From positions 3,449 through 67,448 of the forward strand of contig JAUSHE010000008.1 of assembly GCA_030648435.1 (NCBI GenBank): a DNA stretch of 64,000 bases. Direction: 5' to 3'. The stretch's first letter is position 1, and each line of letters begins with the position of its first letter. The DNA is from Candidatus Daviesbacteria bacterium (lineage in GTDB: Bacteria > Patescibacteriota > Microgenomatia > Daviesbacterales > UBA10151). Below, piece by piece: positions 2,767-54,304 of this stretch. The notes under the pieces were generated by a model. It ran no database searches. It was not told the origin of the DNA and saw nothing but the letters and a program-made list of their open reading frames with translations. Position numbers and translations under genes: made by a program.

Positions 2767-3682
2767 CCATCACGCCTATCCCAACTTTTGCATAATCAGT
2801 TGAAAGTATATTTGCCCTGTGGCCTTCAGAGTTCATCAAACCCCGCTCAGCTAACTCTACACTGGGGGTATATGCCAAATTTTCACCTATCACCAAAAAG
2901 TCAATTCCTACCCTCAAAGCCCTGTCAGCTACAGTTTGATTTTCAGGTGAATAATGGGAAAAATAGCCTCTTTCAAACATATCCTTACTATGAGCCCTGG
3001 CAATACCCCGGAGCTTCGTATCAAAAACCAGCACCTTAAATCCCCTGCCAATCCTTTCCTTATTCACCATCTCCAGCATTTTGTCTTCCGAAGCGCTATC
3101 TACCAATAGTTGATTAGTTTGGAAACCCAGGTTGACTTTTTCATCTGTTTTGGGTTCTATAGTCAGGAAGGTTAAGGAATCATTAGCTACCCCTCCAAAA
3201 ACCTGCTTAACCGGAGATTCCAATCCATATGCAATTTTTAATATTTGGCTACCAATCCTGGAATCCAAAACATTTTTTTTAATAGTGGGCTGAATAGGGA
3301 AAGTTGCTACCATCACTAAAATTAAGGCAATAAAAACCAAACTCCGGAGAAGTGCCGGCACTAGAGCTAAAACTTTTGATCCCAGAATCCTAAATCTTGG
3401 GATCCTTGGCAGGATAAGCCTAACCAGAAAATAAAAAGCGGTTTCAGTTACAAACCAAACAGTCATAAAACCTAAAACCAAAGTTAAACCGTGCGGAATA
3501 TGAAACTGGCTTTCAAAGAATTTGGCAGGAAAATTGTAGTAGCTAAAAGATAGTAGGCCTGCTAAAAGGAAGCTCAAAAAATCAACAAGTTCCAGGATAA
3601 ATGACCTAGCTAACGATTCAATGACAAAAAGCAAAAGTACTCCTATAATGACAAGGTCTACCCAGTTTAGGCCGAAAAGCAT
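2720..3682 (-). CDS. CvpA-like membrane domain fused to a CAP/SCP (PR-1-like, YkwD-type) domain protein; start trimmed to Met41
   Basis: The ORF-track N-terminus (MSRLGIEPRTKRLKVSCSTAELPALG) is the antisense translation of tRNA-Lys. The plausible start is MLFGLNWVDLVIIG (CvpA-like TM helices). C-terminal GHRANIL...YAKVGIGV is CAP-domain-like. Confidence 0.55.
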   Translation of the reverse strand: MLFGLNWVDLVIIGVLLLFVIESLARSFILELVDFLSFLLAGLLSFSYYNFPAKFFESQFHIPHGLTLVLGFMTVWFVTETAFYFLVRLILPRIPRFRILGSKVLALVPALLRSLVFIALILVMVATFPIQPTIKKNVLDSRIGSQILKIAYGLESPVKQVFGGVANDSLTFLTIEPKTDEKVNLGFQTNQLLVDSASEDKMLEMVNKERIGRGFKVLVFDTKLRGIARAHSKDMFERGYFSHYSPENQTVADRALRVGIDFLVIGENLAYTPSVELAERGLMNSEGHRANILSTDYAKVGIGVMDGGVYGKMFTQNFAN

Positions 3683-3729
3683 AGATAAATCATAGCAAAT
3701 CCAGCTTAAATTTAGTACAATACATCCGA

Positions 3730-3802
<73 letters not shown>

Positions 3803-3926
3803 CCAATGATATCTGTGTTTTTAGAGGCTATTAGCCTCGAAAAATTGTTAAAAACTCCTCAAAAATAATCCTATAACCTAGAACCCCAACGAGATTCGAA
3901 CTCTTGATTAGCTTATCATATCAACA

Positions 3927-4091
3927 TTATTTGTTTTCCAAATCCATCTCGTCAATATCCTTATCCCAATCTCCTCCGTAAAAATGCTGCATTAATCCAC
4001 AACATAATTCATAAACAAACACCTGTATTTTCTTCAAATCTTCATCAGATAAATCAGGATAGTATTTTCTTATAGTATCTAAGGGTAACAT
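3927..4091 (-). CDS. Small ORF (54 aa), paralog of 7434..7526, strong SD
   Basis: AGGAGGTGATGATTGAAG-ATG. Product MLPLDTIRKYYPDLSDEDLKK... The first 21 aa are near-identical to the second copy, with a ~70% identical ~100-bp DNA repeat. Confidence 0.4.
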   Translation of the reverse strand: MLPLDTIRKYYPDLSDEDLKKIQVFVYELCCGLMQHFYGGDWDKDIDEMDLENK

Positions 4092-13401: not shown

Positions 13402-14124
13402 TTAAGATAAAAGGGCGCCGCCGTCGACCACAATTTGCGAACCTGTCATATAAGATGACATCTCCGAAGCCAGGAAAAGCGCCACTTTGCCAATTTCATC
13501 TGGTTCACCCATCCTGTGCATAGGAATTTTATTCATAAAAGCTTCCATGATTTTGGGATCAATTTTTCCAGCCCCCTCTTGTGCCTTCACTACCCCCGGT
13601 GTGACAATACCGCCCGGCGCAATGGCGTTGACCCAAATCTTGTGTTGGGCCAGCTCCAGCGCGGTATTTTTGGTAAATCCCCACACACCATGCTTGGAAG
13701 CATCATAGGCCGAGAGACCGATCATTGAAGGGTGCAAGGCATCTATTGAGGAAATATTGATAATTTTTCCGCCCCGCCCCTGCTTTATCATTTGTTCAGA
13801 GACATATTTCGTGGTTAAAAACACCCCCTCCAGATTCACTTTAATCACTTTTTCAAAATCCTCCAAAGTCATCAGGGAAAGCGGCACATTCGGATAAATG
13901 CCGGCATTGTTGACCAAAATATCTATTGAGCCGTATTTTTCAACCGTCTCTGCAACAAGTTTTTTAACGTCCTCTTCTTTGGAAACATTACAACCAGTGG
14001 CCAAATCGGCAATTACAACATTAGCGCCTGCCTCCTGAAAACGTTTGACTATCCCCGCCCCAATCCCTACAGATCCACCGGTAACTATTGCTGCTTTTCC
14101 TGAAAGATCCAGAAGACCGCGCAT
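13402..14124 (-). CDS. Short-chain dehydrogenase/reductase (SDR)
   Basis: TGGSVGIGAGI cofactor motif. NNAG and YDASK (YxxxK) catalytic motifs. Confidence 0.8.
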   Translation of the reverse strand: MRGLLDLSGKAAIVTGGSVGIGAGIVKRFQEAGANVVIADLATGCNVSKEEDVKKLVAETVEKYGSIDILVNNAGIYPNVPLSLMTLEDFEKVIKVNLEGVFLTTKYVSEQMIKQGRGGKIINISSIDALHPSMIGLSAYDASKHGVWGFTKNTALELAQHKIWVNAIAPGGIVTPGVVKAQEGAGKIDPKIMEAFMNKIPMHRMGEPDEIGKVALFLASEMSSYMTGSQIVVDGGALLS

Positions 14125-14136
14125 GCACTTATCTTA

Positions 14137-26584: not shown

Positions 26585-27532
26585 CTATTTATTAACAAGA
26601 AGCTTTTCGAGGTTTTGCAAACTATCCCAATCATGAATTGAGACAGGAATAATTTCTTTTTTAAATTTCTTTAATTTAATAATCTTTTTCTGCAAATCCT
26701 TTTCTTCTATTAAATCATTCTTAGTTAAAATTATTATTTCAGGCTTTTTTGTAAGATCGGCATTATATTTTTCCAACTCATTTCTTACTACCTGATAATC
26801 CTTTAGGACATCTTCTGAATCAGCAGGTACACAGTGTAAAAGTAATTTAACCTTTTCAATATGCTTTAAAAACTTTACTCCCAGGCCTTTTCCTTCCGAA
26901 GCTCCCTCAATTAAACCCGGAATATCTGCAATAACTTTACCGTTATACATACCTAAATTCGGTTCAAGAGTGGTAAAAGGATAGTCAGCAATCTTGGCAT
27001 TTGCCGCTGTTAATTCATTTAATAAACTGCTTTTACCGGCGTTAGGTAAACCAATGAGCCCAAAATCCGCAATATATTTTAGTTCTACTTTTAATTGCCT
27101 TTCCCGTCCGGGTAATCCTTTTTGAGCATATTTGGGAGTTGTGTTTCTAGATGATTTAAATGCAAAATTTCCCCTGCCTCCTAAACCTCCTTTGCAGATT
27201 AAGAATCTTGAGTTTAAATCATTTAGTATAAATTCTTCACCTGTTTGTAGATCATTCATCTCCGTTCCAAGAGGCATTACGATCTCTAAATCTTTTCCGT
27301 CTTTACCTGATTGCTGAAATTTGCCACCCATTTCACCGTTTTCAGCTTCCTTGGTCTTTGATTTTGAAAATTGGTTCAAGGCCCTAAGATCGGAAGTAAC
27401 GCTAAGGTAAATATCTCCGCCTTTGCCGCCATTTCCGCCGTTAGGCCCGCTATGCTGCCCAGGATTAAAAGAAACCCTGCCCGGCCCGCCATGCCCTGCC
27501 CGCAATATAATTTCTACTTCATCAATTAACAT
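26585..27532 (-). CDS. obg: GTPase Obg (short form)
   Basis: Gly-rich Obg fold N-terminus (AGHGGPGRVSFNPGQHSGPNGGNGGKGGDIYL). G1 motif GLIGLPNAGKSSLL. Confidence 0.85.
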   Translation of the reverse strand: MLIDEVEIILRAGHGGPGRVSFNPGQHSGPNGGNGGKGGDIYLSVTSDLRALNQFSKSKTKEAENGEMGGKFQQSGKDGKDLEIVMPLGTEMNDLQTGEEFILNDLNSRFLICKGGLGGRGNFAFKSSRNTTPKYAQKGLPGRERQLKVELKYIADFGLIGLPNAGKSSLLNELTAANAKIADYPFTTLEPNLGMYNGKVIADIPGLIEGASEGKGLGVKFLKHIEKVKLLLHCVPADSEDVLKDYQVVRNELEKYNADLTKKPEIIILTKNDLIEEKDLQKKIIKLKKFKKEIIPVSIHDWDSLQNLEKLLVNK

Positions 27533-27540
27533 ATATAAAA

Positions 27541-27584
27541 TTTCTAATTACTAATTATTCTAATTAACCTAATCAAATCCCAAT
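27541..27584. repeat. AT-rich tandem/inverted repeat (CTAATTA / CTAATTAACCTAAT), left flank of the four-helix-bundle gene
   Basis: CTAATTAACCTAA is the reverse complement of TTAGGTTAATTAG, which occurs twice at 27969-28006. Confidence 0.6.
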
Positions 27585-27602
27585 AAACCAATGTCTAAAT
27601 AT

Positions 27603-27965
27603 CTAAGAAACCTTTTTGTATATTGAATTAAAGATTAAGTTTAACTCTTTTGCTTCCTGCCATAAAGGCTTAGCTTCTTCCTTCAATTCTGAAACAGCCA
27701 CAACTATCATTCTAATGAAATGTTTTGACTCTCTGGACTCTTTTTTACATATACCTATTTTATGTCTAAAATCCTGTTTACTTTCCGCATCGTCTGCTTC
27801 ACAATAATTTGCCCCAACACTGGTCCCGCACTTAATCAATTGATTAATTAAAGGATCAGTAATTACCCCTCTGGGAATCTTTTTGCAAAATTTAATTACA
27901 TCCTCACCAAACTTAGCAGTTCTTTCTTCTAAATCATATTTGGGCAAATTTACATCATTAATCAT
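27603..27965 (-). CDS. Four-helix-bundle protein (23S rRNA intervening-sequence-protein family)
   Basis: GTSVGANYCEADDAESKQDFRHKIGICKKESRESKHFIRMIV matches the ..NIAEG..R.S..DF..FL.IA.GS..E family core. Confidence 0.6.
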   Translation of the reverse strand: MINDVNLPKYDLEERTAKFGEDVIKFCKKIPRGVITDPLINQLIKCGTSVGANYCEADDAESKQDFRHKIGICKKESRESKHFIRMIVVAVSELKEEAKPLWQEAKELNLIFNSIYKKVS

Positions 27966-28010
27966 TATTTAGGTTAATTAGAAATTAGGTTAATTAGGTT
28001 AATTATCTTA
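27966..28010. repeat. AT-rich tandem repeat (TTAGGTTAATTAG x2), right flank; inverted relative to the left flank
   Basis: Seen directly in sequence. Confidence 0.6.
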
Positions 28011-28931
28011 AATCTTGCCTTCCATTTCGCGGAGGGCTTTGATACGGGCTTCAATTGGCGGATGAGTATTAAAAAGTCCTGCTAACCATGCTTTTGCTTC
28101 CTGGCCTTTTAAAGGATTAATAATATACAGGTGAGCAGTTCCCCTGTTGGCTGCTTCCAAAGGCTCCTTATCCGATGATATTTTTTGCAGAGCCGATGCC
28201 AAACCTTGAGGGTATCTGGTCAAAAGTACGCCTGAAGCATCTGCCAAAAATTCCCTCCGCCGGGATACAGCCAACTGGATAAGCACTGCCACTATTGGCG
28301 CCAGAATCGCTGCCACTATAGCTAAAACTATGAAAATTGTATTGTTTTTACTTTCTCTATCTCGTCCTCCAAAAAACATTGACCGGAGGAAAAAATCTGA
28401 CAGCAGCGCAATTGTTCCCACCAAAACCGACACAACCGCCATCACCAGAGTATCCCTGTTACCCACATGGGAAAGCTCATGGGCTGTGACCCCTTCTAAC
28501 TCCTGCTTATTTAATTTATCTAAAATCCCGCTGGTAAAACAAATAGCAGCATGCTTTGGATCCCTGCCGGTAGCAAAAGCATTTGTGGCGCTGTCTTCAA
28601 TAATATAAATCCTGGGGGTAGGTAATCCTGCGGCTATACAAAGATTTTCAACAATTCTATAAACTTCCGGGTTATCCTTTTTCGCAAGTTGTTTGGCGCC
28701 GGAAATACCCAAAACAATTTTATCCGACCAGTAGTAAGAAACAAGGTTCATTACCCCTGCCATAATCAAGGCTACGCCAACTATACCCAATCCCCCCATC
28801 TCTCCGTACCCAAATCCCCTGGCAATTACATAAATAACTGCCACCGTAAATATGGAAAACAAAAACATGATTACCCAGGTTTTAAAAATATTACCGGAAA
28901 CATGATCCCAAGCTGTATTCACAGTAGCCAT
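28008..28931 (-). CDS. htpX: Zinc metalloprotease HtpX (M48)
   Basis: HELSHVGNRD (HExxH), TM helices, downstream of lemA as in many bacteria. Confidence 0.85.
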   Translation of the reverse strand: MATVNTAWDHVSGNIFKTWVIMFLFSIFTVAVIYVIARGFGYGEMGGLGIVGVALIMAGVMNLVSYYWSDKIVLGISGAKQLAKKDNPEVYRIVENLCIAAGLPTPRIYIIEDSATNAFATGRDPKHAAICFTSGILDKLNKQELEGVTAHELSHVGNRDTLVMAVVSVLVGTIALLSDFFLRSMFFGGRDRESKNNTIFIVLAIVAAILAPIVAVLIQLAVSRRREFLADASGVLLTRYPQGLASALQKISSDKEPLEAANRGTAHLYIINPLKGQEAKAWLAGLFNTHPPIEARIKALREMEGKI

Positions 28932-29480
28932 TTAGAAGTTAACTTTTATGTCTGCTTTTTCTGACTCTGCGGCTTTGAAAAATTCTTCTTTCTTAAATCC
29001 AAACATAGACCCTACCCAGGCCGAAGGAACGGTTTCCAGGGAATTATTCAGATCCAAGACATTGGTGTTATAAAATTGGCGGGAGGCAGCTACTTTTGTT
29101 TCGGTATCGGAAATCTCCTCCTGCAGCTCCTTAAAATTCTCAGATGCCCGAAGGTTTGGATAAGCCTCTGCAACGGCAAAAAGTGATTTTAAAGCGCCTG
29201 TCAGCATATTATCCGCTTCTGCAGCTTCATGCGGACTTTTTGCGCCCAGCATAGCGCTTCTCGCTTTAGTGACATTTTCAAAAACTTGTTTTTCATGCTT
29301 GGCATAACCTTTGACGGCTTCAACAAGATTGGGAATTAAAGAAGAACGCCTTTTTAATTGAACTTCAATTTGTGACCAGGCTTCACGGACTCTGTTTCGG
29401 AGAGTAACAAGAGAATTATATATGGCCAAAAGCCAGAAAGCTATTAAAACTACTGCCCCGATTGTGATATATGTAATCAT
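28932..29480 (-). CDS. lemA: LemA family protein
   Basis: N-terminal TM plus [24 protein letters not shown] are LemA hallmark residues. Confidence 0.8.
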
Positions 29481-29483
29481 TTA

Positions 29484-31190
29484 TTAGATATTAAACCATT
29501 TGGCAAAAGTTGTCCAGTCCCAGGTATTCACAATATCTTCTTTCGTAGCCCAGCCGCGCCTGGCTACCGAAACTCCATATTTCATATTCTGCATAGAAGA
29601 TTTCTCGTGGGCATCGGTATTAATAGAAAACTTAACCCCAAAACTTAATGCCTGTCTAACCAGATCGTCCCTCAAATCCAATCGGTTGGGGAAAGAATTT
29701 ATTTCCAAAACTTTTTTGTTCTCACCGGCAAATTTAAAAACTTTCTCCCAGTCAACTTCATAAGAATCCCGTTTGCCGATCAATCTTCCGGTTGGATGGC
29801 CTAAAACTTTTACATAAGGGCTACTTAAAGCTTTTAGGATTCTATTTGTCATAGCTTCTTTGGATAAATGAAAAGAAGAATGAATAGAAGCTACTGCAAA
29901 ATCCAGAAGTTCTAAGACTTCGTCAGGTAACCCCAGGCTCCCATCAGGTAAAATATCTACTTCGAGTAAATTTAGTACTCGAACACTTTTCTGCGAGGAA
30001 TTAATTTGTTCAATAATTTTTTTCTTTTTCAATATTTCACTTGCTACCTGCGCTGCGGTGTGACCTGATTGACTGGGCTGATGGTCAGTAATCCCAATGT
30101 ATTGATATCCCATTTTATGAGCCTGAGCAACTATTTCTTCGATGCTATTTACACCCATATCATGAGATGGCTTGCTGATAAAATCAGAATGCGTGTGCAA
30201 ATCTCCTTTTATATCTTTTAATTCAACTAAATCAGGCAAACTATTTTTTAGGGCAGCCTCAATTTCGCCTAAATCTTCCCTAATTTCCGGTGGGGGAGTC
30301 TGCATCCCAAGTTTTTTATATAACTCTTCTTCGCTACGGCATCCGGTAATATTTATCTTATTTTTCTTTGCAAATTCATTTAAATGGATATTATGGTTTT
30401 TTGAACCTGTAAAATGCTGCAGCAGAGTTCCATAGTTACCGGGGCTTTCAACCAAAAGATCCAGCTGTAATCCCGAATTCAATAAAACAGTGGCTTTGTT
30501 TTCTCCATGGTTTATTATTTTTGATGTGCCGGGCATTTTGCAAAAATAATCTACGGCTTTTTGAGGATTTCTCGAGGCAACAGCAAAATCTAAATCCCCT
30601 ACTGTCGCAACCATTCTCCGTAAAGATCCCAGAACATTAGCATTCTCTATATCAGGACATTTTTTAAGATATTCCAGCACTTTCTCCGCCTGAGCGTCTG
30701 CATATGGCAATGACATCCTGCCTGCAAAAATATCTAATTTTTTCCATTTCAGCACATCACTGATTTTTTTGGAAAGCTTCTCTGAAAAACCTGCACTAAC
30801 CAAAACACCATTCTCAATCATGGCTGAAAGATCATCTTTGCTTTTAACACCCAATTTAGCCAGGCTGAGAGCGGTCTTAGCACCAATTCCCGGAATATCC
30901 AGCAGTTCAAAAACTACCTCAGGAATACCTTTTTTTACATCATCCCAATGTTTAACTTTTCCTGTTTTAAAAAACTCATCAAGATGGGCCTTTAGCGACT
31001 CCCCTAAACCGGGAATATGATTAAGATTACCCTCCTGCCATAAATCAAAAATCTCAGTAGTTGAGTGTTCAATAGAATCTGCTGCATTCTCATAGGCACG
31101 GATTTGAAAAATATTACCCGTCTTGTTGAGGGTATACGCCACGGCTACACTTCGCAACATCCCAGCCAACTGTTGATTGGAGATTTCCAT
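29484..31190 (-). CDS. polX: DNA polymerase X family protein with C-terminal PHP phosphoesterase domain (start revised to MEISNQQL)
   Basis: HhH motifs (IPGLGESLKAHL, IPGIGAKTALSL), Pol-beta-like palm, PHP motif DLHTHSDFS. The ORF-track N-terminus MLKPWKKKVTIILNK is an out-of-frame read of the hicA remnant. Confidence 0.8.
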   Translation of the reverse strand: MEISNQQLAGMLRSVAVAYTLNKTGNIFQIRAYENAADSIEHSTTEIFDLWQEGNLNHIPGLGESLKAHLDEFFKTGKVKHWDDVKKGIPEVVFELLDIPGIGAKTALSLAKLGVKSKDDLSAMIENGVLVSAGFSEKLSKKISDVLKWKKLDIFAGRMSLPYADAQAEKVLEYLKKCPDIENANVLGSLRRMVATVGDLDFAVASRNPQKAVDYFCKMPGTSKIINHGENKATVLLNSGLQLDLLVESPGNYGTLLQHFTGSKNHNIHLNEFAKKNKINITGCRSEEELYKKLGMQTPPPEIREDLGEIEAALKNSLPDLVELKDIKGDLHTHSDFISKPSHDMGVNSIEEIVAQAHKMGYQYIGITDHQPSQSGHTAAQVASEILKKKKIIEQINSSQKSVRVLNLLEVDILPDGSLGLPDEVLELLDFAVASIHSSFHLSKEAMTNRILKALSSPYVKVLGHPTGRLIGKRDSYEVDWEKVFKFAGENKKVLEINSFPNRLDLRDDLVRQALSFGVKFSINTDAHEKSSMQNMKYGVSVARRGWATKEDIVNTWDWTTFAKWFNI

Positions 31191-31191
31191 T

Positions 31192-31269
31192 TTATTTAAA
31201 ATTATAGTAACTTTTTTTTTCCAGGGCTTTAACAACTTGCTTACCGCTTACCTGGGGTATATTTGACAT
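31192..31269 (-). pseudogene. hicA: hicA toxin remnant (25 codons), truncated at an A9 tract and by the polX start
   Basis: ATG abuts the hicB stop (TAAATG). MSNIPQVSGKQVVKALEKK matches the HicA N-terminus (..sgkelik.Lek.G). Stops after GGAAAAAAAAAG. Confidence 0.45.
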
Positions 31270-31506
31270 TTATGCTGTAACTTGAACAGGTACAATAAAA
31301 CGATCCTTGTGAAGTGTGCCCTCGTTGAGCTTATCATTATCAGCATCTTCTAAATATAGCTCTGCAGATTCTTTAATATTTGCTATTGCCTTCTCTAAGG
31401 AGTCTCCCTGAGAAGCACAACCCGGAAGATCAGGAATCCAAACAGAATAACCACCATCTGGGTCTTTTTCAAAAACGGCATCATATTGCAGCACTTTTCT
31501 TTTCAT
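31270..31506 (-). CDS. hicB: HicB-family antitoxin (UPF0150)
   Basis: YDAVFEKDPDGGYSVWIPDLPGCASQGDSLEKAIANIKESAELYLE is the classic HicB/UPF0150 fold sequence. Confidence 0.65.
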   Translation of the reverse strand: MKRKVLQYDAVFEKDPDGGYSVWIPDLPGCASQGDSLEKAIANIKESAELYLEDADNDKLNEGTLHKDRFIVPVQVTA

Positions 31507-31616
31507 ATACTATCATTATAGTCTAAAAACATTCAAAAATCTACAACTCAGCTTCACGCTTTTACCCATACTTATAATTGAATACACAGGCTTTCTCTGC
31601 TAAAATATCTAGGTTT

Positions 31617-31693
31617 GGGGCCGTAGCTCAATTGGTTAGAGCGCCTGATTGTCAATCAGGAGGTCGCGGGTTCAAGTCCCGTCGGTCCCGCCA
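31617..31693 (+). tRNA. tRNA-Asp (anticodon GTC)
   Basis: Acceptor GGGGCCG/CGGTCCC, anticodon stem CCTGA/TCAGG with loop TTGTCAA, T-arm GCGGGTTCAAGTCCCGT, encoded CCA. Confidence 0.85.
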
Positions 31694-31771
31694 ATTTCCC
31701 CTCTTGACAAGAGAATCAATTTAGATTAAAAGTTAGATTGTAATTCTGCCTCCTGATCTGCCCACAAAAAA

Positions 31772-32356
31772 ATGGCTAAAAAAACTTCTGCAAATTATTT
31801 AGAGAAACTGGAAAGCGGAATTGAGTCAAATCAATCCAAAGTTAGTTTGGTTTTAGGCGCTTTAATTGTCTTAGTTATTGGTGTCTTAATTTTCAATTAC
31901 TTCAACCGCAGCAAATCTGATCTGGGACCTGCTCAACAAACATCCCAGGAAACCCAACAGGATGTTTCACCTGATCAACTTCCCGGTAAATACACTGTCA
32001 AAGAAGGGGATACACTATTTGTCATCGCAGAAAAATATTATACCGACGGGGAGAAGTTTTCCGAAATTGCCATTGCAAACAACTTAACGAATGCGGATCA
32101 GATTGCAACAGGACAGGTTATTGAACTACCTAAATTAACTGTCCAGGAGCCCTTGGGTACCGGCGGAGGCAATACTACAATATGGGGAGAAAAAATTGAT
32201 GGCAATACCTACACTGTAGTTGATGGAGACTGGCTCTCTACAATAGCGGGCAGGGCTTACGGAGACATAATGGCCTTTGATAAAATAGCCAAAGCAAACA
32301 ACATCTCAAATCCGGACATTATCGAACCGGGTACTGTCTTAAATTTACCCCGTTAA
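31772..32356 (+). CDS. LysM-domain protein (two LysM repeats, N-terminal TM anchor)
   Basis: YTVKEGDTLFVIAEKYY...IELP and YTVVDGDWLSTIAGRAYGD...LNLP LysM motifs. Confidence 0.8.
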   Translation: MAKKTSANYLEKLESGIESNQSKVSLVLGALIVLVIGVLIFNYFNRSKSDLGPAQQTSQETQQDVSPDQLPGKYTVKEGDTLFVIAEKYYTDGEKFSEIAIANNLTNADQIATGQVIELPKLTVQEPLGTGGGNTTIWGEKIDGNTYTVVDGDWLSTIAGRAYGDIMAFDKIAKANNISNPDIIEPGTVLNLPR

Positions 32357-32488
32357 TTTTGTATACTAGTTAGGTGATCAAAAGGAACTGGCTTACTTTA
32401 TTCTTCCTTTTTATTTTAATTTTAAATGTTGACCAGGGAAACCAAATAGCCACTCAAGGTTTGGCAGAATCATCTAAATAATATTTAG

Positions 32489-32514
32489 CCTCGCAAGGGG
32501 ACGCCTTGCAGCAC
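32489..32514. repeat. REP copy 6 (CTCGCAAGGGGACGCCTTGCAGCAC), intergenic
   Basis: Same element as the other copies. Confidence 0.8.
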
Positions 32515-32591
32515 AATACTATCACTGAGCTACTCCGGCACACACTTATTCTTCAGAAGGCAGGATTAATAAACTACTGCAGGATTCAATC

Positions 32592-32915
32592 ATGGGAATG
32601 AATTTATCCGATATTCACCCCGACTTACCAAGCGGAATTATAGAAATTCAGGAAGGTTATATGAAGTCAGTGACTATAGACGGCACAAATTGTTATCTAA
32701 GCGGCAGGTTTGATATTTTAAGCAAACTTGATGATGGAACTTACGCAATTATAGACTTTAAAATAACCACTCCGGATGAGGAAAAAATACAAAAATATGC
32801 CAACCAATTACATGCCTATAAATTTGCCTTGGAAAACCCGGCAGACGGAGAACCGATTAAAATCTCAAAAATGGGTATTGTCAGTATAAATCCTAATGAA
32901 TTTTTGCTATATTGA
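32592..32915 (+). pseudogene. PD-(D/E)xK nuclease (Cas4/RecB-like) domain fragment
   Basis: DGTYAIIDFKITT (D..D/E.K core) followed by YANQLHAYKFAL (QxxxY motif). Only 107 aa with no N-terminal Cys cluster. Confidence 0.45.
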
Positions 32916-32988
32916 ATTTTACTTCGGCAGTTTGTATATTTATAGATGAACTCAGATCTGGTTTGACCCCACACCTCAAGGAAAATTT

Positions 32989-33360
32989 ATGTTAACTATT
33001 GCCTTCGGGCAAAGTAAATACTTCGTGGACTCGCTGTCGGAAAATACCAAAAGAGGTTTACGCCAAAAAGTTAAACACGGCGAAATGCCTGGCCTTGCTC
33101 CTTTTGGATACTTAAACATCTTAACCGCTGATAGGAGAAAAATTATTATTGTAGATAAAAAGCGTGCTCTTCTTGTCCGCCAAGCTTTTGAAATGTTTGC
33201 TACTGGTAAATACCGAATATTAGACATACGGGACTTTTTGGCGAAAAATGGTATTTTCACCCGCGGTGGTAAAAAATGGCCAATAAACCAAGTAACTAAA
33301 CATATACTGACAAATCCTTTCTATTATATCCATTTTAAATTTTTAGGCGAGATCCACGAA
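32989..33360 (+). pseudogene. Large serine recombinase fragment (recombinase domain only; catalytic N-domain and zinc ribbon missing)
   Basis: KRGLRQKVKHGEMPGLAPFGYLN...LVRQAFEMFATGKYRILDIRDFL...KWPINQVTKHILTNPFYY matches the end of the resolvase alpha-E helix plus the Recombinase domain. Stop codon 14 codons upstream. The ORF then reads through tRNA-Thr. Confidence 0.55.
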
Positions 33361-33562
33361 GGGGTTCATGAGCCAATGAAAAACTGGATAGTGGAAGCCG
33401 CCACGGCGGCTAATACCGCAAGGGGGGAAGACATGGAAGCAAAAAAGGTACTTGCACAAAAAATCTTCGGCTCGAACCTCAAGCTCACCGACAAAATAGT
33501 TTGCTGCAAAGCGCTAAACCAATGGGCGGCGCTCTGCGCCGCCCCGCTTACTCGGGGATGGG

Positions 33563-33634
33563 AGCCGAAGGTGGGAATCGAACCCACGACCTACGGTTTA
33601 CGATACCGCCGCTCTACCACTGAGCTACTTCGGC
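33563..33634 (-). tRNA. tRNA-Thr (anticodon CGT)
   Basis: Minus strand: acceptor GCCGAAG/CTTCGGC, D-arm GCTC-AGTGGTA-GAGC, anticodon stem GCGGT/ACCGT with loop ATCGTAA, T-arm GTGGGTTCGATTCCCAC. Confidence 0.8.
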
Positions 33635-33693
33635 ACAACACATATCACAAATGTATCTTACCAAAGTTGAATCAAGGATTCTATCCAAGTAGC

Positions 33694-35115: not shown

Positions 35116-36150
35116 TTAACTAACCCAATAACCCGTTACAAACATCACGCTAAAGATACCCAGCAACATCAAAGAAATAACCTGAAAAAACAAAACAAAA
35201 TATTGATTCTTAACAAAAGCCATTAAAATAAAAATCGGAAATACCGGCAGTAGAAACCTGGGGCTGGAAGTTAATGTTGGAGTAAAAAGCGGAATCACAA
35301 CTGAAAGCAAACCATATATGGCATATACGGAAGGCAAAAATCTAAAAGCCCTGATGGCAAACCCCAGACCGAAAATCGCAAAGCCCAAATCCAATATGCC
35401 GGTGGGCATATTTTTTAATGCTTCCCAAAAGCCCACACCCGGAGCCACCAAGATCCGCTGCCAGTGATTTTCGGCCGTAATAAAATAAAACGGATCGCCT
35501 GTTTGTCTGTACAAAAATATACTGTAAATAACAAAACCCAAAATAGCAAAGAAAACATACCAATTTTTTCTGTTTATACCATCTTTTCCCAAAACGTCTA
35601 TGATAACCGCAGCCGCAACCGCCAAACCAACTAACCTGGTTGCTGATGCCAAACTTGCAAAAACTACAGCCCAAAATAATTTATTTTTCCTTAAGAAGTA
35701 AAAGGTCAGTACTGTCAGCAGGAAGAAAAGCCCCTCAGAGTAGGCTGTGAGAAAAAAGAAGGAGGTGGGAAAAAACAGTAATACGATCACAGCTTTTTCA
35801 GCAATTTGTTTTTTGAAATCAGACTGTACTAATTTGCAAAAATAATGCAGCCCTAAAAATGTCGAGCCCACACTTATGAAAATGGCAGATATTAAATAAT
35901 TATTAATTATTTTATTTAATACATTTATTAGTAACGGATAAAACGGAAAAAAAGCATATTGAAACTTCTCACTATAACCCTTTTCTGCAATTCCTAAAAA
36001 ATGCCCTCCGTCCCAATTTGCCAAATTGGAGAAAAAATTGTTACTGAATTTTCCTGAATGGGGTAGGGTAGAAAAACCAAAATATGAAACCAGTAAAACT
36101 GATACTAACCAGATGATGAAAATTTTATTGATATTAGGATATAATTTCAC
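35116..36150 (-). CDS. PIG-V/GT-C-like mannosyltransferase family membrane protein
   Basis: WDGGHFLGIAEKGYS...YAFFPFYPLL matches the Mannosyltransferase (PIG-V)/DUF2029 signature. Polytopic. Confidence 0.55.
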   Translation of the reverse strand: MKLYPNINKIFIIWLVSVLLVSYFGFSTLPHSGKFSNNFFSNLANWDGGHFLGIAEKGYSEKFQYAFFPFYPLLINVLNKIINNYLISAIFISVGSTFLGLHYFCKLVQSDFKKQIAEKAVIVLLFFPTSFFFLTAYSEGLFFLLTVLTFYFLRKNKLFWAVVFASLASATRLVGLAVAAAVIIDVLGKDGINRKNWYVFFAILGFVIYSIFLYRQTGDPFYFITAENHWQRILVAPGVGFWEALKNMPTGILDLGFAIFGLGFAIRAFRFLPSVYAIYGLLSVVIPLFTPTLTSSPRFLLPVFPIFILMAFVKNQYFVLFFQVISLMLLGIFSVMFVTGYWVS

Positions 36151-53899: not shown

Positions 53900-54229
53900 T
53901 TAAGCAAAGGACTCAAGATGAAGTTCAGGAAGCACTTTTATCTTGGCAGCTTTTTCAACAGGTTTTAATCTACTTTCAATTCTTCTGATATTACTATCAT
54001 TCATTTTATACATATCAGCATATCCTTTAACTGTTTTCTCAAGCTCAATCACTGCCCCAGTATTAGCATCGAGTCTGTTGTTTATAGCTACCAAGCCAGT
54101 ATCAGGATCATCTAATCTCTCTGTAACACCATCTAATCTCTCTGTAACACCATCCAGCTTTTCTTTAATTGGCTTAATAGTCTCATTAACTACTTCTTTA
54201 ACTACTTTTCTAAATGTATTTTCATCCAT
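53900..54229 (-). CDS. Hypothetical small coiled-coil protein containing a 21-bp tandem duplication
   Basis: KLDGVTERLDGVTERLD encoded by CATCTAATCTCTCTGTAACAC x2 at 54108-54149. Confidence 0.35.
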   Translation of the reverse strand: MDENTFRKVVKEVVNETIKPIKEKLDGVTERLDGVTERLDDPDTGLVAINNRLDANTGAVIELEKTVKGYADMYKMNDSNIRRIESRLKPVEKAAKIKVLPELHLESFA

Positions 54230-54304
54230 GATTTGATAGTAATCTTAGCAAAAACAAAAATCAAGCGGGATTTTATATATCAAACTAGCCAAAATCTATC
54301 TTAT

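Follow-up and report, generated by a model that had tools for sequence, protein, structure and literature searches.

An IVS-type gene cassette with inverted tandem-repeat arms in the htpX-obg spacer of a Daviesbacteria genome and its probable place in a widespread family

Why does a gene for a small four-helix-bundle protein, which an earlier note on this DNA described as normally found inside the intervening sequences (IVSs) of ribosomal RNA (rRNA) genes, stand between the protein-coding genes htpX and obg of a Candidatus Daviesbacteria genome, enclosed by AT-rich tandem repeats in inverted orientation? The locus lies in a stretch of contig JAUSHE010000008.1 (64,000 nucleotides, hereafter the window); that note had read the locus either as a transposed IVS-like cassette or as an RNA-level structural element. 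With a probability of roughly 70%, positions 27539-28004 are a resident copy of an old and widespread family of IVS-type cassettes. Members of this family would be promoter-less units of about 460 bp, in which a PF05635 gene lies between inverted arrays of a family-specific short repeat. The resident unit (minus strand, 466 bp) has a G+C content of 29.8%, compared with 38.3% window-wide, and consists of a 5' arm, an open reading frame (ORF) and a 3' arm that is an inverted copy of the 5' arm. In the direction of transcription, its parts and the host genes at its borders are:

28008..28931, minus strand: htpX-type M48 peptidase gene, the co-oriented upstream host gene and left border of the insertion site
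27966..28004, minus strand: 5' arm, AATT-AAC CTAATT-AAC CTAATT-T CTAATT-AAC CTAAATA, with 4 AATT cores in CTAATT(N1/3) units
27603..27965, minus strand: ORF of 120 aa, stop codon (TAG) included in the span, encoding the PF05635 / TIGR02436 four-helix-bundle protein
27585..27602, minus strand: spacer of 18 nt in the 3' untranslated region, between the stop codon and the 3' arm
27539..27584, minus strand: 3' arm, ATTGGGATTTGATTAG GTT AATTAG AAT AATTAG T AATTAG AAATT
26585..27532, minus strand: obg GTPase gene, the co-oriented downstream host gene and right border of the insertion site

The unit fills the space between the two host genes almost completely. The 5' arm begins 3 nt (GAT) past the htpX stop codon (TAA) and abuts the ATG of the cassette gene, and the 3' arm, which carries a conserved subterminal motif (TTGGGATTTGATTAG) in addition to the inverted copy of the 5' arm, stops 6 nt (TTATAT) short of the obg ATG. 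The 3' spacer contains a CATTGG that can pair with the start-codon region. Three pairs of inverted repeats connect the flanks, namely 27558-27572 with 27969-27983 (15/15 complementary), 27552-27573 with 27984-28005 (22 nt, 91%) and 27544-27567 with 27965-27988 (24 nt, 83%). Within the window, there are three exact copies of the 13-mer TTAGGTTAATTAG and, at 27994-28006, one with a single mismatch; a search for other copies, which the earlier note had proposed, found the exact 13-mer confined to the two cassette flanks within the 64 kb. As an internal control, the best ungapped Watson-Crick inverted repeat between the flanks was scored for every window ORF of at least 100 aa (n = 76). The cassette ranked first of the 76 with a score of 16, compared with a mean of 7.0 (sd 1.6) for the other ORFs, which bears out the inverted AT-rich tandem repeats that had been reported around this 120-aa gene between obg and htpX. 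No second gene of the family was found in the window, either with phmmer or with a profile hidden Markov model (HMM) built from 8 diverse family members, nor was any further arm array or ORF-less miniature of the unit.

The same architecture recurs at many other sites and in many phyla. A protein search returned thousands of homologues, the best 120 at 78-100% identity, and a scan restricted to one genome per species gave 554 relatives, of which the best 80 loci were analyzed. These 80 come from many Patescibacteria classes, Ignavibacteria, Caldithrix, Bacteroidota, Eisenbacteria and Marinimicrobia, with amino acid identities of 68-92%, and arms are present in 79 of 85 non-identical copies (arm filter). 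Across copies, 5' arms are composed of CTAATT units with T, GAC, AAC, GAT or ATT as spacers and end in CTAAAnA-ATG, and 3' arms start with TTGGGATTTGATTAG, continue in AATTAG units and end in GAAATT; the spacer repertoire is identical in both arms. Four AATT cores per arm is the mode (49/70 copies on one side, 52/70 on the other), and in the window copy the cores are spaced 7-9 nt apart in each arm. Units have a median length of 461.5 bp, with no conservation past the outermost AATT on either side. Some copies have a 5' arm, CTAATCAAATCCCA-ATG, that exactly complements the 3' TGGGATTTGATTAG, so that the repeat extends to the start codon. Upstream of the cassette, 72 distinct gene contexts were counted, including the ATP synthase operon, a site downstream of a class-I tRNA synthetase gene, priA-def-fmt and mreB. 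The cassette usually starts 0-20 nt past the stop codon of the upstream gene and is co-oriented with that gene in 68 of the 72 contexts (binomial p = 5e-16). At the level of sequence, these comparisons show that gene and arms move and persist together across phyla.

Could the flanks be an ordinary A/T-rich low-complexity spacer around an ordinary gene? The base composition of the region and an unexceptional flank duplex energy would fit this idea. However, it is already refuted by the confinement of the exact 13-mer to two flanks, by the inverted-repeat score and by the presence of arms with the gene in 79 of the 85 copies across phyla despite saturated synonymous sites, leaving chance a negligible probability. 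The expectation that the gene normally resides inside rRNA IVSs does not hold for this clade either, since marker motifs of 23S (sarcin-ricin) or 16S (515) rRNA are absent from all 89 cassette loci; in the window itself, no rRNA and no Rfam match at gathering or E-value thresholds were detected. Because the cassette occupies dozens of sites in many phyla, rRNA IVSs would seem to be one of the places where a wider and poorly described cassette family has landed. As to assembly, some short metagenome contigs that bear the gene break within the arms, at the contig end in L008 and at the contig start in L009 and L170. Assemblers break contigs in this way at repeated DNA, which hints that arm arrays are multi-copy in those communities.

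Was the unit inserted at the htpX-obg junction, or has the spacer always contained it? Eighty obg loci were taken from metagenomes, and the htpX-obg neighbourhood is kept in 6 of them. Without a cassette, the spacer measures 9 nt (L094, L116) or 61 nt (L092, L093). In L010, a closer relative with a cassette protein 92% identical to that of the window, the cassette is present at the identical site and its arms have diverged mainly in the spacers. This comparison of the interval among relatives, also suggested beforehand, shows empty and filled states of one site, from which it can be read that the unit was inserted in the htpX-obg spacer of a Daviesbacteria lineage. Taken with the recurrence of gene and arms in 72 contexts, it supports the transposed IVS-like cassette of the earlier note. 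The opposite picture, in which relatives would have a repeat-free gene and the repeats would be genome-wide low complexity, was looked for and is not what the loci display.

Other small genes were observed in the same spacer, a PEMT/ICMT-family methyltransferase gene in L090 (1791-2351) and an antisense NUDIX hydrolase gene in L091 (1982-2449). Because it is occupied by different small genes, the htpX-obg junction looks like a recurrent landing site for them. In the cassette-free relatives L090, L091 and L092 (~2485-2503), a TATAAT ends 6-8 nt before the obg ATG without a Shine-Dalgarno sequence, which suggests that obg transcripts are leaderless there; in the window, the terminal part of the 3' arm and TTATAT stand in place of this TATAAT box. 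From 22.9 to 32.4 kb, the window contains gatB, gatA, gatC, an NYN-domain gene, obg, htpX, lemA, polX and a LysM gene, with lemA and polX beyond the htpX side and the NYN-domain gene and gatCAB beyond the obg side.

What does the cassette encode? Profile HMM searches assigned the protein to PF05635 (23S_rRNA_IVP; 42.2 bits, cut-off 33.8) and TIGR02436 (four helix bundle protein; 64.3 bits, cut-off 24), the family of S23p and of the diversity-generating retroelement (DGR) protein Avd. An AlphaFold2 monomer model (pLDDT 93) contains helices at residues 13-27, 36-58, 63-90 and 92-119. The best Foldseek matches are 2RLD (TM 0.77-0.85) and 2GSC (TM 0.80), followed by Avd (4DWL/8UB7), and phmmer matches 2RLD at 4e-10; a fold shared by 2RLD, 2GSC and the DGR protein Avd has been described (PMC10053308). 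Within the clade, S49-x3-N53-x2-E56 is invariant, and Q42 and K45 stand at the G and R positions of the GxxRxxxSxxxNxxE motif (PMC3936711). The blocks TSvGANYcEADDAES, HKIGIcKKE.RE.KHf.RM and LW.EAKELNLIFN are nearly invariant. At 50% identity, the family (PF05635/TIGR02436) comprises 6056 cluster representatives. Many of these representatives are 150-175 aa long (e.g. P0125, P0126, P0129, P0131), with the match beginning at residue 40-65; such over-long representatives are probably gene calls that run upstream through the 5' arm, not proteins with genuine N-terminal domains. No close relative of the cassette protein was found in 2.9 million viral contigs.

Both the gene and its arms bear the marks of long-term constraint. 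The dN/dS ratio is 0.04-0.09, and synonymous sites are saturated for most pairs, same-genome copies included; two copies in one locus (L084), for example, share 89% amino acid identity and 44% third-position identity. A 45-nt arm has 2.6-2.8 CTAATT/AATTAG cores, and a shuffled one 0.06. Because the cores are kept while synonymous sites are saturated, the substitution patterns show both the protein and the repeat cores to be under purifying selection, and the copies to be old. In addition, 20 ORF-less arm pairs of 70-165 nt were detected in 728 kb of cassette loci, compared with 0 in 361 kb of obg control loci. These miniatures consist of a 5' arm, a remnant of the gene start (ATGAC...), the TTGGGATTTGATTAG motif and a 3' arm; 6 immediately follow a full copy, and the remaining 14 occur singly in other spacers. 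Miniatures of the same genome have loop sequence in common (L073, three; L075, two; L081, two), and by-eye identity is ~85% for the L075 pair and ~90% for the L081 pair, whose members are 490 nt apart. Since loop sequence is shared within one genome, the miniature form was copied, and the alignments thus show that ORF-less miniatures exist and were duplicated. The densest cluster was observed in L073 (2451-6712; Microgenomates contig JACQJR010000001.1), where a full cassette and 3 related miniatures, the loops of which share GAAATTTCCCAA, occur within 10 kb.

Do the arms act as an RNA stem or as an array of motifs? Folding of 27533-28010 as RNA pairs the flanks in both the minimum free energy and the centroid structure (z = -2.7), and arm duplexes average -24 kcal/mol, compared with -9.7 kcal/mol for shuffled arms. 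However, a number of results weigh against the reading of the unit as a mobile IVS-type cassette. The flank duplex energy of the window copy ranks only 7th of 76 (-33.1 kcal/mol; mean -23.4, sd 6.3) because the helix is A/U-rich; the repeat flanks are confirmed as a real sequence feature, and their thermodynamic weight is not to be overstated. Pairing is not copy-specific, as own arms give -24.2 kcal/mol and the arms of other copies -25.1 kcal/mol (permutation p = 0.96). Folding does not favour the sense over the antisense strand, nor are G-U pairs predicted in excess (285 sense, 305 antisense). No sign of recent movement was detected: same-genome copies have saturated synonymous sites, and identical proteins (P0021, P0038, P0095) are each confined to one context. 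No target-site duplication was found either, with 8, 1 and 1 identical flank 2-, 3- and 4-mers against 8.1, 1.8 and 0.6 expected; the near-identical L081 miniatures have none as well, and the duplications of old insertions could have been lost. Moreover, the genes between 22.9 and 32.4 kb include no transposase, integrase or reverse transcriptase, and the cassette protein, which has no catalytic domain, matches no defence or phage family in PADLOC or PHROG. Stronger predicted flank duplexes were noted at three other window ORFs on the minus strand (13405-14133, 2164-2769 and 53903-54244; -42.9, -37.3 and -36.5 kcal/mol), all of them unremarkable in ungapped inverted-repeat score.

Since the three RNA-specific tests are negative, what is conserved within the clade is a motif array, not a particular helix. 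Of the RNA structural element with an RNase III stem that the earlier note had considered, the predicted stem remains, whereas strand asymmetry, G-U excess and copy-specific compensation are lacking. In distant paralogues, the arm sequences are unrelated to the CTAATT arms and are again mutually complementary. The arms of L077b reach -55 kcal/mol over ~48 bp with the AUG included, those of L063b are ATCAATT repeats, and those of L181b, downstream of mreB, are CTGACAA repeats. In the latter locus (L181, contig Ga0209542_10027274), mreB lies between two PF05635 cassettes of different subfamilies (2001-2363 and 3588-3962), the upstream one with CTAATT arms and the downstream one, which encodes 124 aa, with CTGACAA/GTTGTCA arms.

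The symmetry of the arms, with one spacer repertoire on both sides, could also indicate a purely DNA-level terminal inverted repeat (TIR) element of the foldback or miniature inverted-repeat transposable element (MITE) type, in which a transposase acts in trans, the gene is a passenger or accessory and the RNA stem is incidental. The absence of strand asymmetry and copy-specific compensation, the duplication of miniatures within genomes and the contig breaks inside arms, as at repeated DNA, are in line with such an element. However, it would be expected to leave target-site duplications, a candidate transposase beside some copy and near-identical copies in different contexts, none of which was seen among the copies examined. 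A passenger gene with a dN/dS of 0.05 and invariant blocks across phyla would be unexpected, and the 94% co-orientation with host genes would require additional selection. This explanation is therefore considered unlikely. The unit falls short of a classical TIR transposon: terminal inverted repeats and miniatures are present, but target-site duplication, transposase and recent near-identical copies are absent.

How, then, would an IVS-type cassette persist in host operons? It would be transcribed by read-through from the host operon, given that no promoter or terminator signal rises above chance (promoter consensus matches are at chance level and no terminator was found) and that co-orientation is seen in 68 of 72 contexts. 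Once transcribed, the arms may form an A/U-rich helix of ~27 bp with each other, extending as far as the start-codon region. On the analogy of rRNA IVSs with genes of this family, this helix would be a substrate of RNase III, and the cassette RNA would be excised from the operon transcript. An RNase III-processed stem is plausible on that analogy; the idea is unproven because target-site duplications, recent copies and a strand-specific RNA signature are missing, and excision of the cassette RNA is a real but doubtful possibility. The arms themselves may be arrays of sequence-specific sites for a multimeric protein, with CTAATTAAC x4 as the predicted target in DNA or RNA. The candidate binder is the four-helix-bundle protein, the only one encoded by the element, and members of its family crystallise as pentamers. 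The arms are read in this way because their cores are conserved, their spacers are uncompensated and the repeat is subfamily-specific. That they are binding-site arrays for a multimer, most economically the encoded protein, is proposed tentatively, at somewhat less than even odds.

Is this architecture restricted to metagenomic lineages? A tblastn search against plasmids returned 30 records, mostly from Nostocales, at 30-42% identity, of which 9 were inspected. Their arms are as follows:

Nostoc flagelliforme: AATTCAA x4.4, 31/31 complementary
Dolichospermum flos-aquae: TAATTCG x4.7, 33/33 complementary
Nostoc punctiforme PCC 73102: GGAGGTC/GGAAGTC, -90 kcal/mol
Planktothrix agardhii: clear inverted tandem heptamers
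Candidatus Chlorohelix: clear inverted tandem heptamers
Anabaena cylindrica: moderate arms
Bernardetia, Pseudanabaena, Chondrinema: weak arms

In three of the plasmid records, the gene is preceded by a helicase-related gene and followed by another gene of the same restriction-type cluster, the methylase of which follows directly in Chlorohelix and one gene further in Dolichospermum. Another plasmid gene of the family lies in an RND efflux operon, with the adaptor gene on one side and the permease gene on the other. On pANACY.01 of Anabaena cylindrica PCC 7122 (L191, 1045-3136), the gene is located between cas2 and cas1 on the opposite strand, and on pPg_04 of Pseudanabaena galeata (L196), a four-helix-bundle gene lies just upstream of cas1. 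The occurrence of 23S_rRNA_IVP genes within cas loci has been noted previously, with no mention of repeats (PMC3936711). Such positions inside cas, restriction-modification and efflux operons again run contrary to a normal residence in rRNA IVSs. The three Nostoc flagelliforme plasmid copies are parts of larger duplications and therefore do not define the ends of the unit. On Dolichospermum pAfl69 (L200, NZ_CP051207.1), at least 10 arrays of the arm heptamer AATTACG/TAATTCG (3-10.7 copies each) cluster at 27263-33647, within 6.5 kb around the four-helix-bundle gene, and several of them are inside coding sequences annotated as helicase-related or as DNA methyltransferase. No other array of this heptamer occurs in the first 50 kb of pAfl69, where the nearest variant is AATTACC x3.6 at 35382.

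The crowding of arrays around this plasmid gene would fit a regulatory module, in which the protein binds its cognate repeats in DNA or RNA, the arms are autoregulatory and the ORF-less arrays are further targets in a post-transcriptional network. Conserved cores with uncompensated spacers and a separate motif for each subfamily would suit such a module, as would start-codon-proximal heptamer arrays (PMC4679880) and convergent GGGAATC pairs (PMC4692102). The 3' arms and miniatures commonly end 0-12 nt before a downstream ATG, but in a compact genome little distance to the next ATG would be expected in any case. Moreover, no regulon is visible in the window, with its single gene and no further array across 64 kb, and the 72 different sites would be left unexplained unless the module were also mobile. 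A regulatory module is thus considered unlikely, and a resident IVS-type cassette remains the preferred reading.

Which known system does this cassette resemble most? The IVSs of rRNA genes, as in Leptospira and Coxiella burnetii, share with it the PF05635 family, a similar length, complementary ends that pair in a long stem around the ORF (28 bp in Coxiella, predicted here), a G+C content below that of the host, a sporadic distribution suggesting horizontal transfer and an ORF-less class (short IVSs there, miniatures here). The Coxiella IVS measures 428-444 nt, compared with 466 bp here, and has a 28-bp terminal stem and an S23p ORF; RNase III cleaves it in vitro, and ORF-bearing rRNA IVSs were long ago proposed to derive from a mobile element (PMC4990558). 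In addition, 23S_rRNA_IVP ORFs have been found in 16S and 23S rRNA insertions of the Candidate Phyla Radiation (10.1101/2024.02.27.582315). In contrast to rRNA IVSs, the cassette lies between protein-coding genes and not in helix 25 or 45 of 23S rRNA, its arms are short tandem repeat arrays, and its ORF, unlike the decaying and apparently untranslated one of Coxiella, is intact and under strong constraint. By location, an rRNA IVS was ruled out, given the htpX-obg site, the lack of rRNA in the window and the lack of markers in the 89 loci.

Avd (PDB 4DWL, 8UB7) has the same four-helix-bundle superfamily fold (Foldseek prob 0.96-0.99, TM ~0.65-0.75). It is a nucleic-acid-binding pentameric barrel, and in DGR RNA the stretches on either side of the template base-pair with one another (10.1101/2023.10.23.563531). 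However, its sequence identity to the cassette protein is ~13-15%, and a DGR was ruled out because no reverse transcriptase or template/variable repeat pair is adjacent to the cassette gene. An integron gene cassette was likewise ruled out, since repeats are present on both sides of the ORF, the unit stands alone between housekeeping genes and no integrase was found.

Short tandem heptamer arrays of cyanobacteria (STRR) are said to have been described by Mazel et al. in 1990. Unexplained heptamer arrays just upstream of start codons were described in Beggiatoaceae (TAACTGA), Cyanobacteria and Bacteroidetes (PMC4679880), and convergent GGGAATC pairs in Xanthomonas were stated not to be associated with mobile elements (PMC4692102). 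Like the cassette arms, these arrays are intergenic, contain 2-10 copies of a 7-9 nt unit, often end just before a start codon and often form convergent (inverted) pairs; they occur in unrelated phyla and have no known function. The PF05635 genes of cyanobacterial plasmids are flanked by exactly such arrays, a link that is based on five or six cultured examples and is not genome-wide. In contrast, neither PMC4679880 nor PMC4692102 draws a connection to a PF05635 gene, and the units of the window family are mostly 9 nt, with some of 7-8 nt.

A further parallel is provided by REPIN-RAYT systems and MITEs such as the Correia elements of Neisseria, in which a dispersed intergenic inverted-repeat doublet accompanies a gene flanked by cognate repeats and vertical persistence is long. 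Correia transcripts are processed by RNase III. The cassette differs from these systems in its 120-aa helical bundle, which has no known catalytic fold and is not a Y1 transposase, in the absence of a TA duplication and in the low copy numbers seen here. Overall, it works most like an IVS or a REPIN-type element. In the literature, no paper linking PF05635 genes to tandem-repeat arms and no description of a free-standing armed cassette or of the arm sequences was found, with incomplete coverage and an earlier description therefore possible.

What would such a cassette family mean more widely? PF05635/TIGR02436 is a very large family without a known function outside DGRs. For genome annotation, the arms would account for contig breaks and over-extended gene calls near these genes. 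The armed architecture also exists in organisms in culture (Nostoc, Dolichospermum, Planktothrix), in which both RNase III processing and binding of the protein to the repeats are open to direct test. A broader conjecture, speculative and somewhat unlikely to be correct, is that PF05635 proteins are the missing trans-acting partners of the STRR, TAACTGA, GGGAATC and CTAATT arrays. In that case, a pentameric barrel would read 4-5 tandem units, and the gene with its inverted arrays would propagate itself and seed ORF-less arrays into operon spacers and structural RNA genes, of which rRNA IVSs would be the most visible landing site. If members of the family are generally repeat-armed cassettes, this would explain the nature of ORF-bearing rRNA IVSs, a puzzle since 1993. 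It would also explain the presence of four-helix-bundle genes in cas, restriction-modification, efflux and housekeeping operons, as well as the dispersed heptamer arrays of cyanobacteria and other phyla, so that three puzzles would become one.

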